Of a stretch of DNA of 64,000 nucleotides, positions 48,002 to 59,738 are shown in pieces. Position numbers and translations under genes: made by a program. The notes beneath the pieces were generated by a model, which saw only the letters and a list, made by a program, of their open reading frames with translations, ran no database searches and was not told where the DNA came from. Position 1 is the stretch's first letter, and each line of letters starts with the position of its first letter. Source of the stretch: a plasmid; the NCBI RefSeq assembly GCF_053078305.1, contig NZ_CP166875.1; one strand, 5' to 3'.

Positions 48002-48329
48002 TATTTTTGTAGAGCCGGAGGAAACAGACCAGACGGTTTAAATGAGCCGGTTACAAACAAATTCGCTTCATAAATTTCATAGTGCAGACCACATCCCCAA
48101 TGAGCCTGCTTTTCCAGCCTGCTGATCACCACATCAGCCCGGATAACATCAAAGGGATTGCGGGAATGAATATTACGAATAAAGCCATCGGTACGTGCTG
48201 CTGACATATTTCTGCCCATCTTTAATACACCTCTGTTTTTTGCCCCCATCATCTGTTGAGTTTCGGGAGCCGCGGTTTTGACGTTTTGCGGGGACCTGCC
48301 TTTTGTTCCCTCCGGTATTCACCATCACC

Positions 48330-48720
48330 TGTTTGAGAACCTTCGCCGCAAGGGGCATCACTGCCACGGCCGGAAACGACTGTCCGGGGGCAGACCGCAA
48401 AAGTTTTTGCCTGCTTTTGGGCAAAAAGTTTTGCGGGATGTGCATTTCACCCCTGGACTGGCGGAGACGGTTGTGGCTGTCTTTGCCCCCGGCGACAGGG
48501 GCTTAAACAGGTGTATGGCACCGGACACAACAACGGGCAGGGACCCGCCGCAACGACGAAGAGCGCGTGCGCGAAACGGCGTTGCCCCTTACATCCCGGC
48601 GGCCTTTTGCCGGGATGCCAGGAGCGCAGGCCACGGCGCGACAGAGGCGGCGCGACCGGAACGGTCGCTGCAAGCCCGGGGTTTCGCGTCAGGGATGGAA
48701 GCCCGCCAGGGCGGAGACAG
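48330..48720. promoter_or_regulatory. GC-rich hairpin repeat, copy 1 (candidate Frpo/ssi-type single-strand element)
   Basis: homologous to 53740-54010; core GAGCGCAGGCCACGGCGCGACA.AGGCGGCGCGACCG...CGGTCGCTGCAAGCCCGG. Confidence 0.5.
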
Positions 48721-53064: not shown

Positions 53065-53592
53065 TCAGAACGGGATATCGTCTGAAAATCCGTAATCCTC
53101 CCCCTCCGGCGGCTGAGGCTGAGGCTCGGGCTGCGCGGCCTTACGTCCACGGCCTTTCGTTTTCGCGCCACTTTTTTTCGTCGCGTCAGCACTCTGTGGC
53201 TGCCCATTCTGCTGAGGCTGCGGTTGTGCCTGAGCGTTCTGCTGTGGTGCAATCCCCAGCATCTGCATGGTGCCCGTGGTCTTAACAAGAATTTCAGTGA
53301 CGTAACGGGTGATACCGTTATCTTCCCAGCTACGGGTTCGGAGTTGCCCCTCGATATAGACCTGCGCGCCCTTGCGCAGATATTCACCAGCCACTTCCGC
53401 GAGCTTGCCGAACAGCACCACGCGGTGCCATTCCGTCTGCTCCCGCATCTCCCCCGTCTTTTTGTCGCGCCAGCTTTCTGATGTGGCCACCTGCAGGTTT
53501 GCCACTGCGCCCCCGTTGGGGATGTAACGGACCTCCGGATCATTGCCCAGACGCCCGACGAGGATGACCTTGTTGATACCACGTGCACTCAT
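53065..53592 (-). CDS. ssb: plasmid single-stranded DNA-binding protein
   Basis: [25 protein letters not shown]-fold; acidic C-terminal tail DDIPF. Confidence 0.9.
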
Positions 53593-53739
53593 GAGAACCT
53601 CCTGACTGAAAGATGTGAGATAAACCGGATACCGGAGACGGGACGTTCATATGCCCCTTCAGAGGAGCGAAAGCTCCTCCTGCCGTCCACTTCTTCGGGG
53701 TTTCTCCCCGCAGTGGACCTTTCCGATGGGGGCCCGTTT

Positions 53740-54010
53740 ACCGCCTCACGGGACAGCTGTCCGGGGGCGGACGCAAAATTTTTTGCCGGGTTCATGGCTA
53801 AAAATTTTGTGGCCGGTATATCTTCCCCTGGACTGATGGAACGGGAGGTGGTTACGTCTGCCCCCCGGAAAGTCCACAGCGGGAAACAGGCCGCAGAGGT
53901 GGCGGCAGAAGAGGAGCGCAGGCCACGGCGCGACAAAGGCGGCGCGACCGTTCCGGTCGCTGCAAGCCCGGGTTTTCACGCATCGGACCGTAGCGACAGC
54001 CCGAAACCGC
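53740..54010. promoter_or_regulatory. GC-rich hairpin repeat, copy 2, upstream of ssb
   Basis: homologous to 48330-48720. Confidence 0.5.
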
Positions 54011-54292
54011 GCCAGCGGGTTCGGCGGAGACTGGCGGGTGCGCCAGCAGTTGCCTGTCGGAGTCGGGCCTGACGACCGGATGCCGCCAGGCAGCCGGGAG
54101 CCGAAGGGGCGCATGTGTAAGAAGGTTCTTTAACGACAGGTCTGTAACAGGTACTTCCTGAAACAACGCCTGTCACCAACAGGAAGGGTAACGGGCGACG
54201 CGCCAGCGTGGCCCGCATCCCTTCCGGCAGGCGCCAGCCTGCCAGGGGTTTTCGCGCGGGCTGACAGGCGGCCTCCACCGCCTACCCCTGTA

Positions 54293-54484
54293 TCACCTGT
54301 GCCTGCTGCCCTGAAGGATGTAGTGACCACCGAGGAAAACCGCCTGCTGATTCGCCACAAAATCACAGATTTCATCAACAATCTGCGCGGTGGTGAGCGG
54401 TTTCTGCCCCATTTCACGACGCCGCGCATTAATCACGGCTTTGTAATTGCGCAGAATTTCGCGGGTTTCCGTGCTGATATTCAT
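54293..54484 (-). CDS. hypothetical small protein
   Basis: 63 aa ORF. Confidence 0.35.
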   Translation of the reverse strand: MNISTETREILRNYKAVINARRREMGQKPLTTAQIVDEICDFVANQQAVFLGGHYILQGSRHR

Positions 54485-54949: not shown

Positions 54950-55375
54950 TCAGTCCAGTGCCGCGTAAATCGCGTTACATTCGGGGTGAAATTCGATGTG
55001 GCTCCACAACTGCGCATCGCGCATCCGGTAAAGCTGGGTCAGTCCTGCATCCCCGCTGTCGTGGTACAGCCACAACTGGCGGTTAATCACAAGGGAAGTC
55101 AGGATGATACCTGCGGCATCAGCACTCACAGTGCGGTCAAACCAGTTTTCACCGTTGACCAGATGAAAACGGTCGCCATCCGGCATCATGTAACCGCCAC
55201 CGTCCGGCAGGCGGATGAAATGCCAGAAGCCTCCCTGATATTCCGGCATCATTTTTTGCGCCAGCGCGTACACATACGCCTCGGCATACAGAAAATCGTT
55301 GCCAAACAGGTAAGGCAGAAAGGAGAGACGGTCGCACTCTTCAACGTTCAGAGTGACAGATTTCGCATACTGCAT
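54950..55375 (-). CDS. klcA: KlcA/ArdB-family anti-restriction protein
   Basis: 141 aa from [30 protein letters not shown]; family assignment from memory. Confidence 0.6.
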
Positions 55376-55621
55376 GGGATTTCCTCCGTTGTTCACATAT
55401 TCCGCGACACCGGGCGGTGCCGTGCCTCCAGAAAAGCCGGGCGATAAGGCGGGGATGCAAGGGCGCAAGGGAAGCCGCAGCCTGACGCACACGGCTGGCG
55501 GGAGTTGGAGGGTGAGACCGCGAAATCTGAGCGGGTGAACGACCGGAAAATCACGGCAGACGGGAAGGAGGGACCGGGTGACCGCCGCGTGCATTTTACC
55601 CTTGCATCCCCGCCAGCGTCA

Positions 55622-56392
55622 TCATTTCCGGATTTTCGCCAGTGCATCCGCCATGCTGCGGATTTCATCCCGTGCCTCCAGAACAACCTCCCGCAGAATA
55701 TCCCTGTCAAACCAGCGACGGGACGGTTCATCCGGTATACGCAGCACATCACAGACCAGACCACTGGCCAGGATATGCTCCACACACTCACAGACCAGGT
55801 ACATTTCCACCGCCGAAAAACGGGCGCCACGGTTCAGAATGGCATCGAGCACCACGGGCAGATTTTCGTCATCTTCATCAAGCCAGCAGGGGTAATCGCT
55901 TTCCTTCACGACCAGACGAAAGCGGCGCGTCTGGCGGGTCAGCAACGTCTGACCGGTGGTGGTCAGCGCCGCCCGGATACGCCGCGTATCTTCTGCCACC
56001 TGGTAACAGATGCTTCGTACTGCATTGCGCACCGCATCAAGAACTGCCCTGATTTCTTCCTCCGTCAGCCATTCACCGGCATACGGGAAAGACACCTGCG
56101 TTCCGTCTGCCGGAAGTACCGGCAGCGCCTGCCACTGGCTGCCGGACAGAACAAGTTCCGCTCCGGTTCCGGTCAGTTTCTGAATGGCGGAGGCCAGGTG
56201 CGGCGGCAGTACGCCATCATGGCGGCTGATAAGTAACGTCGCCAGCCGGGATATATCCAGTCGCACATAAATGCTGATCCAGCCCGGATAGTGCGGATTC
56301 AGTTGTTCAATATCCGTCTCTTCCGGCCAGCCCTGCGCCAGCAGCAGGTTACGGGCGTGGCGACAAACCAGTGCATTCAGCGTTTTGTTCAT
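55622..56392 (-). CDS. hypothetical protein
   Basis: 256 aa ORF from MNKTLNALV. Confidence 0.45.
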
Positions 56393-57104: not shown

Positions 57105-57788
57105 TTACGCAGCCTCCGGCATAAACCAGTCATCATTTGCGGCCCCCTGCTGCATGGCCCGCTGTACGGCAGCCAGACGTTGCTGTCCGGCACGGTGATA
57201 CTGCTCAAGCAGCTCGATACCGATATACCGGCGTCCGGACTGGAGGGCGGCGACGCAGGTTGAGCCGCTGCCTGCAAACGGGTCCAGCACAATCGCGTTC
57301 GGATGTGTGAAGCTCTCAATCAGTGGTTGCAGGCTGGTAACGGGCTTTTCCGTCGGGTGATGGCGGTTGCCCGAATATTTCCAGCCCAGCACATCCGGCA
57401 GCGGGTTACGGGGCCGGGCCGGACTGCCCTTTGCCAGGATGTAAGCGCATTCGTGGCGGTACGCGACATACACAGATTTGGATGTGTAGTTTTTGGTGAA
57501 GACCAGGTGCCCAACCACGCTGAATCCGGCGCGTTTCCAGGCCGCCATAAAGCGGTCAATACGGTGCCAGCCGTAGAAGCTGACCATCAGCGCGTCTTTT
57601 TTGAGTACGCGGTACATCTCATTGCTGGCAGGTTGCAGCCAGTCATCATTAACGTCACCGGCAATGGTGCGCCCGGAACGGTCACGGAAACCGACGAGAT
57701 ATGGCGGATCGGTTAATATGAAATCAATGGCGTTATCAGGAATCGTGGCCATAACACGCACGCAGTCACCCAGGATAAAACGGGACAT
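57105..57788 (-). CDS. orphan N6-adenine DNA methyltransferase
   Basis: DPPY catalytic motif, FAGSGSTCVAA AdoMet-binding motif, no adjacent restriction enzyme. Confidence 0.8.
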   Translation of the reverse strand: MSRFILGDCVRVMATIPDNAIDFILTDPPYLVGFRDRSGRTIAGDVNDDWLQPASNEMYRVLKKDALMVSFYGWHRIDRFMAAWKRAGFSVVGHLVFTKNYTSKSVYVAYRHECAYILAKGSPARPRNPLPDVLGWKYSGNRHHPTEKPVTSLQPLIESFTHPNAIVLDPFAGSGSTCVAALQSGRRYIGIELLEQYHRAGQQRLAAVQRAMQQGAANDDWFMPEAA

Positions 57789-58171
57789 AACAGCTCCTTC
57801 TCTTACAGAGGGCACCGGGAGGGCACCCCTGTGGTGCCCGTTCCCCGCTGCCTGTGGGCTGTACACCGCGTCCGGTAACGGGTCAGGCCGACCGTGGAAT
57901 ACCGCAGCCGTCGTCTTTTTGACGGCAAGGTTATGCCGCGAAAGCGGCTTGAAGGGCGTTCATCAGAAAAGGGCGACGGGCTGGCGTACACTGTCACCGA
58001 CGCCAGCCGGGAGCGGTAAAAGCGCCCGTCCCGTGCCCGGCCGGACGCGGGACACTGACCACAGGCAGCGTTTATGCCGCGCCGCATCAGCCGGCGCAGT
58101 AAAAAGAGGAGCACAGCGACATCCTTTACCGGAAAAGAAACGGGCGGTTGCCCGCCCGTCTCCGTCATACT

Positions 58172-59098
58172 TCATCCGCCATAATGCGCCACCTTGTCGA
58201 CTATCCACGCAGGTCCGGTGACTTCCGGCAGCTCATCGTCATCTGTCGGGGAAGACCATTCCAGTTCCCCCCACAGCACATCAACGAGCTCTCCGCGCTC
58301 ATACAACTGCCAGCCACAGAAATCACAGCCCTGTTCGGCATACCAGTGCTCCAGCGTGCAGCTGAAACGGCGGCTTAATTCTGCAATAACGTCGCTTTCC
58401 GGCTGACACCACGGCGTGTCGAAATCAACCTGAATGAAGTTGTCTCCCTGACTACTGATATTCACCTCATACCCCACAGGCCACTTCACGCCATACCGTT
58501 CCGTATACCAGTGATATGCAGAAGGAACACCGTTCAGAACACCACCGTTAAAGCCATTCACTTCAACATCCAGGCGGGTCGGCAGAACCGTCAGCAGGTC
58601 AAACGGCATGGTTTTTTCCGGCAGTACGTTGTCACACAGACGGTTCCACCACACCGATACATCCTCGTTACTCCAGAAGCCACACCAGTCACCTCTTTTT
58701 GCGGTGAAAAGTGCGGTGATGGTATCCCTGACATCGTCCGGTAATCCTTTCCAGCGACGCTGTCCAGTACCGCTCTGCAGCCAGAGTTCATGCAGCATCA
58801 GGCAGTTTTGCTCATCCAGCAGTACACCGTCCTGCAGGTGTGTCAGCCAGCGGGTGAACGCGATATTCTCCGGCGATACAACGCCACGTCCGGCAGCCGT
58901 CAGTCCGGGGCATGGTTCAAACCGCACATCTTCAGTGGTCTGCAGAAGTCCGGCACTTCCGGCCAGAAACAGCTGAATACCTTCATTTGTGGCGCGGCGA
59001 TAAAGCGGTGTGACTGCACCGCTGGCCAGTCGTTTAATCTCAGCAATCTGTGCCGGTTCACCAGAAAAATGCATACGATTTGAGCACCAGTTTGGCAT
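58172..59098 (-). CDS. hypothetical Cys/Trp-rich protein
   Basis: 309 aa from MPNWCSNRMHF; no recognised catalytic motif. Confidence 0.45.
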   Translation of the reverse strand: MPNWCSNRMHFSGEPAQIAEIKRLASGAVTPLYRRATNEGIQLFLAGSAGLLQTTEDVRFEPCPGLTAAGRGVVSPENIAFTRWLTHLQDGVLLDEQNCLMLHELWLQSGTGQRRWKGLPDDVRDTITALFTAKRGDWCGFWSNEDVSVWWNRLCDNVLPEKTMPFDLLTVLPTRLDVEVNGFNGGVLNGVPSAYHWYTERYGVKWPVGYEVNISSQGDNFIQVDFDTPWCQPESDVIAELSRRFSCTLEHWYAEQGCDFCGWQLYERGELVDVLWGELEWSSPTDDDELPEVTGPAWIVDKVAHYGG

Positions 59099-59450
59099 GG
59101 GAATTCTCCTCTCACATGCGGCCTCCATCAGGCCGTGCCGCACCTGTAACCGGGCGACCGCATACGAATGCAGGTGCGGCCCCGAAGCCGCATCGCGTGG
59201 AGGAGGAACGACGAAACGTGACCGGGTGAGGAGGCTGGCGACAGCGACACACTTGCATCGGATGCAGCCCGGTTAACGTGCCGGCACGGCCTGGGTAACC
59301 AGGTATTTTATTCACAGAACCGTGCGCAAAATGCTGTGGATAAGCTGGACACAGCAGTCCACAGCAGGCATACAGCCACCCCCTCAGAGAATTGAGCGTT
59401 TTTTAGTCACAATAATGACATTTGACTGTGTGGATTCAGTTATTAGAATG

Positions 59451-59466
59451 CTGTATATACATACAG
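59451..59466 (+). promoter_or_regulatory. LexA box CTGTATATACATACAG upstream of impC
   Basis: matches CTGT-N8-ACAG SOS box consensus. Confidence 0.75.
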
Positions 59467-59489
59467 CAATAGAAAAGGGAGATGAGAAC

Positions 59490-59738
59490 ATGATCCGCAT
59501 TGAAATTCTTTTCGACCGCCAGAGCACAAAAAACCTCAAATCAGGCACACTTCAGGCGCTACAGAATGAAATCGAACAACGTCTGAAACCACACTACCCG
59601 GAAATCTGGCTGCGTATAGACCAGGGCAGCGCCCCGTCTGTATCTGTCACAGGAGCCCGCAACGACAAGGATAAAGAACGTATCCTGTCTCTGCTGGAAG
59701 AAATCTGGCAGGACGACAGCTGGCTGCCTGCAGCATGA
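59490..59738 (+). CDS. impC: ImpC
   Basis: 82 aa MIRIEILFDRQSTKN...; first gene of impCAB. Confidence 0.75.
   Translation: MIRIEILFDRQSTKNLKSGTLQALQNEIEQRLKPHYPEIWLRIDQGSAPSVSVTGARNDKDKERILSLLEEIWQDDSWLPAA

Follow-up and report, generated by a model that had tools for sequence, protein, structure and literature searches.

A predicted class 2-type single-stranded DNA promoter hairpin upstream of the DUF1281 gene in the leading region of IncI and IncF plasmids

Six single-strand promoters were mapped in the IncI1 plasmid pESBL by Wen et al. (NAR 2025; PMC12672017), all of them with start sites determined by 5'-RACE: three of class 1 (ssi1-3/Frpo), two mutually similar ones of class 2, located 5' of klcA and ardA, and one of class 3, located 5' of the M.EcoGIX methylase gene. 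Class 2 was validated by RNA-seq and 5' RACE and is conserved in F. For the F leading region, Fraikin et al. (2026) describe four ssDNA-promoter operons and name no promoter before yfdA. In addition, three low-certainty candidates from another plasmid lineage, Frpo'4, Frpo*1 and Frpo*3, were reported before KlcA- or methylase-type genes (Samuel et al., Nature 2024, Supplementary Table 2), and their insect metagenome source matches Candidatus Erwinia dacicola contigs. The list of leading-region single-strand promoters dates from 2025 and is based on a fixed energy cut-off.

The stretch analysed here, called the window, consists of 64,000 nucleotides of a plasmid (contig NZ_CP166875.1). The leading region of this conjugative plasmid of the IncI/IncF type occupies 48-60 kb of the window. 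The 1.6 kb around its DUF1281 locus match upwards of 5,000 plasmid records of Escherichia, Salmonella, Shigella and Klebsiella with 95-99% identity, and the hairpin upstream of the gene occurs in over 4,000 IncI and IncF plasmids among those sequenced. The IncI-gamma/K1 plasmid L001, which is 98% identical, has nikB, nikA and oriT on the low-coordinate side, and these are followed, in order from oriT, by ardA, psiA, psiB, a ParB-like gene, ssb, a KlcA-type antirestriction gene, a DNA methylase gene and the DUF1281 gene. Every leading-region gene from ardA through DUF1281 is directed toward oriT, and beyond DUF1281 comes the divergent dinI-like/umuD/Y-polymerase (impCAB) operon. DUF1281 is always the first gene of the leading-region island, adjoining this divergent umuDC/imp operon. 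From the gene order and direction relative to oriT in L001, it follows that the + strand of the window is the transferred strand (T-strand) and the template for the leading-region genes. The matches of known single-strand promoters to the + strand are consistent with this reading: F ssiD matches 48243-48591 with 95% identity and ColIb-P9 Frpo3 matches 53659-53911 with 96% identity.

The gene and the elements read on its strand are as follows:
58172..59098, - strand: coding sequence of the DUF1281 (Api92/YubB-like) protein, with the ATG at 59098-59096 and the stop codon at 58174-58172 (308 aa plus stop).
59106..59110, - strand: Shine-Dalgarno sequence AGGAG, 7 nt before the ATG, read from the sequence.
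59099..59136, - strand: predicted 5' UTR, placed from the position of the putative -10 box.
58131..58163, - strand: RNA hairpin ACGGGCGG-GCAA-CCGCCCGU with a U-run behind it, resembling an intrinsic terminator and located 9 nt past the stop codon, obtained by RNA folding.

In pESBL, where it lies at 53471-54397, this gene is called Hp8; its name in F is yfdA, and some annotations of IncI1 plasmids use yfaB. The F name was assigned because the F methylase is yfeA and because of the family naming of Samuel et al., in whose Supplementary Table 1 the family is named YfdA, YccB or YubB and ranks 27 among the leading-region families, with 1,949 members. In the initial annotation, the product was described as a Cys/Trp-rich protein of 309 aa starting with MPNWCSNRMHF. 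The open reading frame and its start are borne out, whereas the length has to be corrected to 308 aa, since 309 is the number of codons with the stop included. MPNWC is regarded as the true start because all 25 aligned full-length homologues begin with MPNWCxNR and because the alignment to Api92 begins at residue 3; the RefSeq annotation of 300 aa, which begins at a Met9 start lacking a Shine-Dalgarno site such as AGGAG, is probably wrong. The richness in Trp and Cys was also confirmed: the 308 residues include 16 Trp (5.2%) and 9 Cys (2.9%), proportions considerably higher than is usual for bacterial proteins, and a large number of them do not vary among the aligned family homologues. The protein is acidic (pI 4.55; 44 Asp+Glu, 23 Lys+Arg).

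A profile search, proposed as a check of the earlier statement that no catalytic motif could be recognised, returned only the Pfam families DUF1281 (PF06924, 3.8e-49) and DUF1281_C (PF18406, 1.9e-15), both above the gathering score, and no functional homology. DUF1281_C is described as a "ferredoxin-like domain in Api92-like protein". The structural-genomics entry 2IJR was matched at 1.7e-50, and the similarity to Api92 extends over the full length. Api92 of Yersinia pseudotuberculosis, for which a crystal structure exists (PDB 2IJR), differs from the plasmid proteins in that it lacks the GCxFCG cysteine pair, which is invariant in the latter. In BFVD, only uncharacterised "YubB ferredoxin-like domain" proteins from phages and giant viruses were matched, and searches of NCBIfam and PADLOC with the protein gave no match. 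No sequence or fold similarity to characterised inhibitors (ArdA, KlcA/ArdB and other anti-restriction or anti-defence families) was detected, and literature searches found no functional study of DUF1281, Api92 or yfdA. The protein belongs to a known but functionally uncharacterised family.

The initial annotation had also drawn attention to GC-rich dyads upstream of the gene. These dyads exist, and their positions, together with those of the consensus hairpin, are the following:
59129..59293, + strand: long imperfect T-strand hairpin, read from its fold, covariation and profile match as a class 2-type ssDNA promoter (short variant).
59129-59140/59282-59293, 59147-59155/59267-59275 and 59169-59176/59250-59257, + strand: paired segments of the consensus hairpin.
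59180-81/59233-34, 59186-90/59223-27 and 59238-39/59244-45, + strand: remaining paired segments of the consensus hairpin.
59137..59180, + strand: local perfect 10-bp dyad GCCGCACCTG/CAGGTGCGGC, an alternative and lineage-specific pairing that competes with the long stem.

In the local dyad, GCCGCACCTG (59137-59146) is perfectly complementary to CAGGTGCGGC (59171-59180), and the longer dyad joins 59129-59155 with 59267-59293 over 27 nt with 81% complementarity. Folding of the upstream region as ssDNA, which had been put forward as a check, gave -50.1 kcal/mol for the 183-nt element (z = -4.06; none of 200 shuffles was as stable), and the MFE and centroid folds agree on one long hairpin closed by the 27-nt dyad; for a 242-nt stretch, z was -2.87. 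The 10-bp dyad, which the initial annotation had quoted, did not behave as a conserved structure: across 28 related elements, 50% of its cells are paired, compared with 30-42% in slid controls, and no covariation was detected, so that it was rejected in this role. The conserved structure upstream of DUF1281 is the long-range hairpin.

Analysis of seven sequences with RNAalifold yielded this long hairpin with 53 pairs, 26 of which show compensatory changes, and the same long hairpin, with 31 pairs, was obtained from 28 short variants. In these 28 elements, 96.8% of the cells are paired, and shifting the 3' partners by 1-3 columns lowers this share to 29-42%. Both sides are changed in 83 cells, compared with 2-17 after such shifting, and the observed covariation score was not attained in any of 500 shuffles. 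The search pattern by which the family was collected fixes 19 positions of the 3' arm, so that invariance there is partly by construction; the covarying pairs fall at positions that it leaves free. In the window copy, all 31 consensus pairs are formed, with six compensatory double changes and no uncompensated one.

Over the 28 aligned elements, 39 G·T cells and 2 A·C cells were counted on the + strand, which argues for the T-strand DNA, rather than its complement or the mRNA, as the folding strand; the pairing of family cells is 96.8% on the + strand versus 92.5% on the complement. The same count bears on the proposal that the dyads act at the RNA level, as a 5' leader structure or a terminator, or code for a small ORF (59112-59315, - strand, 67 aa), since the mRNA-sense strand turns the G·T pairs into mismatches. 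Such a proposal could draw on RefSeq records in which a 'hypothetical protein' is placed between the genes for DUF1281 and the DinI-like protein, and on a terminator-like hairpin flagged by the scanner on the + strand at 59289-59304. Nevertheless, the family alignments display single-base indels and covarying pairs instead of codon patterns, and the 67-aa ORF is Arg/Pro/Gly-rich, as for a chance frame in GC-rich DNA. Furthermore, a promoter scan of 57800-59600 found no canonical double-strand promoter on the - strand upstream of DUF1281 that could make such an RNA, the sole canonical promoter in this interval being the imp promoter (59422-59449, + strand). An RNA-level or coding role is consequently considered very improbable.

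To survey the family, one genome per species was searched with a fixed-length pattern derived from the 3' arm. This pattern was found at 69 loci, nearly all in Enterobacterales (Pantoea, Erwinia, Enterobacter, Buttiauxella, Klebsiella, Yersinia and others). The survey set comprised 75 elements for which a 5' arm could be recognised and an ORF was called downstream, and in 70 of them the first opposite-strand ORF is the homologue of a leading-region protein (ArdA, 19; KlcA, 24; methylase, 21; DUF1281, 5; a 271-aa protein, hyp271, 1). Nearly all of these 70 have a start codon, preceded by a Shine-Dalgarno sequence, at a distance of 33-49 nt from the 5' arm. The exceptions are a small number of ORFs that were truncated or had been re-called, among them two methylase ORFs whose start codon is 20 nt from the arm. 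The two arms are separated by about 180-192 nt in long variants and by 115-135 nt in short ones, to which the DUF1281 copy belongs (120 nt). A profile (nhmmer) built from 72 unique family members, from which the DUF1281 lineage was excluded, gave a + strand match to 59132-59290 of the window (E = 8.9e-16, model positions 13-231), and it also matches the klcA-upstream region of the window.

Alignments revealed blocks on both arms that are common to the DUF1281-upstream region and to the hairpins preceding klcA and ardA in L001, and the same blocks are present in the klcA-upstream hairpin of a Klebsiella IncF plasmid and in Frpo'4, Frpo*1 and Frpo*3. Frpo'4 matches the klcA-upstream region of the window at 89%, and Frpo*1 is 77% identical to 59217-59290 (E = 1e-5). 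On these grounds, the DUF1281-upstream hairpin is assigned to the class 2 ssDNA promoter family as a diverged member with a short apex. The idea that the upstream dyads are of the kind that drives early expression from ssDNA is thereby supported, by family homology and profile match as well as by covariation. Their supposed resemblance to the other hairpins of the block stood in part, for one of the three hairpin classes found there: it holds for the klcA-upstream (class 2) element at the level of profile and structure, and it does not hold for the class 1 Frpo/ssi elements or, within the window, at the BLAST level. The kinship of the DUF1281 hairpin to the klcA-upstream element is indeed visible only at the profile or alignment and structure level, and blastn of the DUF1281-upstream region against the whole window detected no other copy.

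With the class 2 elements (ssp2 of F before yfgB/klcA, and those of pESBL before klcA and ardA), the DUF1281 hairpin has in common the homologous blocks on both arms, a long T-strand hairpin with covarying pairs and a conserved G·T mismatch in the putative -35 stem, TTG...TAnnGT on the 3' arm, the distance to the Shine-Dalgarno sequence and ATG, and the type of leading-region island. It differs from them by its total length (about 165 nt instead of about 230-250 nt, owing to the short apical domain), its weaker fold, the additional competing local dyad and its location before DUF1281 rather than before an anti-restriction gene. Frpo'4, Frpo*1 and Frpo*3 are further members of this family of elements and align over the whole DUF1281 hairpin, Frpo*1 and Frpo*3 being short variants like it; a copy upstream of DUF1281 is not listed in Supplementary Table 2 of Samuel et al. 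The class 1 Frpo/ssi elements (ssiD/Frpo of F; ssi1-3 of ColIb-P9) share the principle of a T-strand hairpin that mimics a duplex promoter and serves early transcription of the leading region, but their architecture is different, they fold much more strongly, at -94 to -101 kcal/mol, and they have no sequence similarity to the DUF1281-upstream region. Membership in class 1 was rejected, as blastn with five known sequences matched only 48243-48591 and 53659-53911.

Two candidate promoter boxes were assigned on the 3' arm:
59253..59258, + strand (3', non-template arm): putative -35 box TTGCAT, paired with 59168-59173.
59274..59279, + strand (3' arm): putative -10 box TAACGT (family consensus TAnnGT), proposed from column counts and the inverted-repeat reading.

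The putative -35 stem contains the family-conserved G·T mismatch, here between 59173 and 59253. TTG occurs at the putative -35 position in all 28 aligned elements, where the search pattern forces it, and TAnnGT is likewise forced in part; both are also kept in the DUF1281-upstream elements of Salmonella (L073), Pantoea ananatis (L075) and Kosakonia (L077), which were found via the protein and not via the pattern scan. The TAACGT sequence lies in a partly mismatched stem, in which 59276, 59277 and 59279 are unpaired and 2x2 and 3x3 internal loops are formed; Frpo-type promoters likewise have internal loops at -10. The spacer between the putative boxes is 15 nt, below the usual 16-18 nt, and both boxes are poor consensus matches; they are oriented toward DUF1281 and occupy family-conserved columns. 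As the 5' arm is contiguous with the DUF1281 gene on the T-strand hairpin, it would be the template. With a start 7 nt after the putative -10 box, transcription is predicted to begin opposite about 59286-59287, at template base 59136-59135 or thereabouts, giving a 38-nt leader that contains AGGAG. At the other end of the gene, the terminator-like hairpin folds at -26.5 kcal/mol (z = -3.7), although it is not among the terminators listed by the consensus scanner. This GC-rich hairpin with its U-run, 9 nt past the stop codon, suggests that the DUF1281 transcript is monocistronic.

The position of the hairpin relative to the gene is also relevant to a possible role in DNA replication, in which it would act mainly as a single-strand initiation or priming site, or as a roadblock delaying the complementary strand, the expression of DUF1281 being secondary. 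The stem of ssp2, a member of the same family, stalls complementary-strand synthesis until UvrD resolves it (bioRxiv 10.64898/2026.01.09.698686), and Frpo-type elements also prime DNA synthesis according to Masai and Arai (1997). On the other hand, the near-constant spacing of 33-49 nt to the Shine-Dalgarno sequence and ATG among the 70 elements, together with boxes on the correct arm, points to transcription as the selected function, and the short variant is devoid of most of the ssp2 apical domain. A mainly replicative role therefore appears improbable, bearing in mind that the two roles are not mutually exclusive.

The association of a promoter-type hairpin with DUF1281 is also seen with diverged homologues of the protein. 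Such homologues occur in Salmonella L073 (61% amino acid identity), Pantoea ananatis L075 (50%) and Kosakonia L077 (50%), with the same synteny of divergent umuDC followed by DUF1281, methylase, DUF1380 and an antirestriction gene, and in all three a hairpin of the class 2 family is located 33-37 nt from the DUF1281 start (nhmmer E = 1e-18, 4e-32 and 5e-38, respectively). The homologue of a Klebsiella IncF plasmid (L002, 47%) is preceded instead by a copy of the methylase-upstream element (80% identity). Because class 2-family hairpins precede the gene in the first three and a methylase-type element in the last, DUF1281 genes appear to be regularly preceded by a single-strand-promoter-type hairpin whose class is not always the same.

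The published energy screen was repeated on the T-strand of the pESBL-like plasmid L001 (300-nt windows, 10-nt steps, DNA parameters, cut-off of -75 kcal/mol). Exactly six regions passed, with energies of -76.7 to -101.2 kcal/mol: three of the Frpo/ssi type (one upstream of ssb), the ardA-upstream and klcA-upstream regions, and one directly 5' of the methylase gene. The DUF1281-upstream hairpin reached -74.5 kcal/mol in L001 and -73.5 kcal/mol in the window and did not pass. As these energies are 0.5-1.5 kcal/mol short of the cut-off, the hairpin was probably overlooked by the published screen. These results also bear on the identity of the class 3 promoter. The possibility that the published class 3/M.EcoGIX promoter is the DUF1281 hairpin itself, driving one DUF1281-methylase operon, is argued against by three results, namely the screen region located directly 5' of the methylase, the terminator-like hairpin after DUF1281 and the missed threshold; the screen supports the methylase-upstream element as class 3.

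The observations that speak against an active promoter are the weakness of the hairpin compared with its relatives (-74 versus -77 to -101 kcal/mol per 300 nt), the competing local dyad, the 15-nt spacer, the poor boxes and the lack of functional homology of the product, to which are added data on the gene: Hp8 is dispensable in pESBL for maintenance and for transfer to a laboratory recipient, as judged by TnSeq, a frameshift divides yfdA in the reference record of F, and truncated copies are numerous in databases. Moreover, the account of induction in pESBL reports only six induced operons (PMC12672017), and the F study only four, with none assigned to yfdA; in pESBL a seventh might have been expected if Hp8 were strongly induced, and this is the main evidence against activity. 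The fold energy just short of the screening threshold, the spacer, the competing dyad, the six operons and the state of the gene would be compatible with a decaying class 2 ssDNA promoter which no longer fires, DUF1281 being weakly or later transcribed from double-stranded DNA or being lost. But the 31 intact consensus pairs of the window copy, with their six compensated and no uncompensated changes, are unlike neutral decay, the -35 TTG and the -10 TAnnGT are kept, the linkage between hairpin and gene is maintained across 50% protein divergence, and the scan of 57800-59600 found no alternative promoter. Decay of this kind is accordingly judged unlikely.

The preferred interpretation is that of a three-part expression unit consisting of an ssDNA promoter hairpin, the DUF1281 gene and a terminator, which is rated as probable, early expression being predicted from homology and structure. 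During conjugation, the + strand would enter the recipient as single-stranded DNA and 59129-59293 would fold back into a long imperfect hairpin. Its stem would recreate a double-stranded sigma-70 promoter with TTGCAT (-35) and TAACGT (-10) on the 3' arm, the -10 region being partly mismatched. The host RNA polymerase could then initiate near the base of the stem with the 5' arm as template and leave the hairpin through the 38-nt leader, with its strong ribosome-binding site, into DUF1281, and transcription would end at the hairpin and U-run directly past the stop codon. Synthesis of the complementary strand would remove the hairpin, so that the promoter should switch off.

The acidic DUF1281 protein most likely serves early on, as a factor of establishment or anti-defence, because the same module precedes ArdA, KlcA and the ssDNA methylase and because DUF1281 is first in the island. 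A more far-reaching proposal, which we put forward tentatively and consider rather doubtful as a whole, is that the hairpin is an active and so far uncounted ssDNA promoter, which would bring the number to seven in pESBL and other IncI1 plasmids and to five in F, and that DUF1281 is a new protein expressed early for anti-defence or establishment. Its fold would be unrelated to that of any known inhibitor, and its YubB-type ferredoxin-like domain, present also in phages and giant viruses, would mark a broad counter-defence family of mobile elements.

The genes of the leading region decide the survival of an incoming resistance plasmid in its first minutes in a new host. If the DUF1281 hairpin is active, the early regulon gains one more operon and, with it, a very common uncharacterised protein that would be a concrete candidate for a new anti-defence activity. 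The class 2 hairpins appear as a portable module shuffled among ArdA, KlcA, methylase and DUF1281 genes in Pantoea, Erwinia, Enterobacter, Klebsiella and related genera. What results is a prediction that can be tested at low cost, namely that very common resistance plasmids carry one more ssDNA promoter together with a candidate anti-defence gene.

Two single-strand hairpins of the leading region lie upstream of klcA and of the methylase gene on the transferred (T) strand of the window plasmid:

55404-55700, + strand: class 2 hairpin (ssDNA promoter type) upstream of the KlcA-type gene 54950-55375 (- strand)
57789-58175, + strand: T-strand hairpin between the stop codon of the DUF1281 gene and the start of the methylase gene (ATG at 57788)

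The first of these is truncated, and about 158 bp present in both F and L001, a 98%-identical pESBL-like plasmid (L001 17543-17700), are absent from the window plasmid. The absent sequence covers both the -10 box and the basal part of the 3' arm, only model positions 3-208 of the class-2 profile were matched by the region, and no fold-energy peak was detected at 55404-55700. On this basis, klcA may have lost its single-strand promoter in this plasmid. The methylase-upstream hairpin is very stable (387 nt at -110.8 kcal/mol, z = -6.8; -93 per 300 nt) and probably corresponds to the class 3 ssDNA promoter published for M.EcoGIX. In the Klebsiella IncF plasmid L002, copies of this element stand in front of both the methylase gene and the DUF1281 homologue. 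A 101-aa "hypothetical protein" is placed by RefSeq inside the hairpin, and this ORF is likely to be spurious.

In the F reference (NC_002483, 3811-4781), yfdA, the DUF1281 gene of that plasmid, is broken by a frameshift into two ORFs, one of 183 aa and one of 145 aa; the hairpin upstream of it is 97% identical to that of the window. Many database homologues are also truncated or fused. Some RefSeq plasmid records (e.g. NZ_CP018993 and NZ_AP017892) bear an "arginase" feature under the DUF1281 gene and its GC-rich hairpin region, which appears to be an artefact of annotation, namely an ORF that arose by chance in the GC-rich sequence.

Enterobacterial leading-region hairpins were also found in assemblies labelled as unrelated phyla:

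L005 and L006: Streptomyces morookaense
L013: Alicyclobacillus plasmid
L007, L035, L046 and L047: gut Firmicutes/Actinobacteria MAGs

At some of these loci, the ArdA, KlcA, methylase or DUF1281 genes are almost identical to the E. coli plasmid versions. The loci in this list are most likely contaminating or mis-binned IncF/IncI plasmid contigs.

Three further elements are located on the side of the DUF1281-upstream hairpin that faces the dinI-like/impA/impB operon:

59289-59312, + strand: small terminator-like hairpin and T-run (GCCTGGGTAACCAGGT ATTTTATT), with its start at the outer end of the DUF1281-upstream hairpin's 3' arm
59422-59449, + strand: near-consensus sigma-70 promoter (TTGACT-16-TAGAAT) before the operon
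59451-59466, + strand: perfect LexA box (CTGT-N8-ACAG) directly after this promoter, before the operon

The operon is SOS-regulated, divergent from DUF1281 and forms the boundary of the island; umu-like operons in this position have been described by Samuel et al. (Nature 2024). The terminator-like hairpin is not conserved among the other members of the hairpin family. In the duplex form, it would sit a short distance downstream of the TTGCAT/TAACGT boxes, which face rightward, and it might halt any transcription driven by these boxes towards the imp operon.
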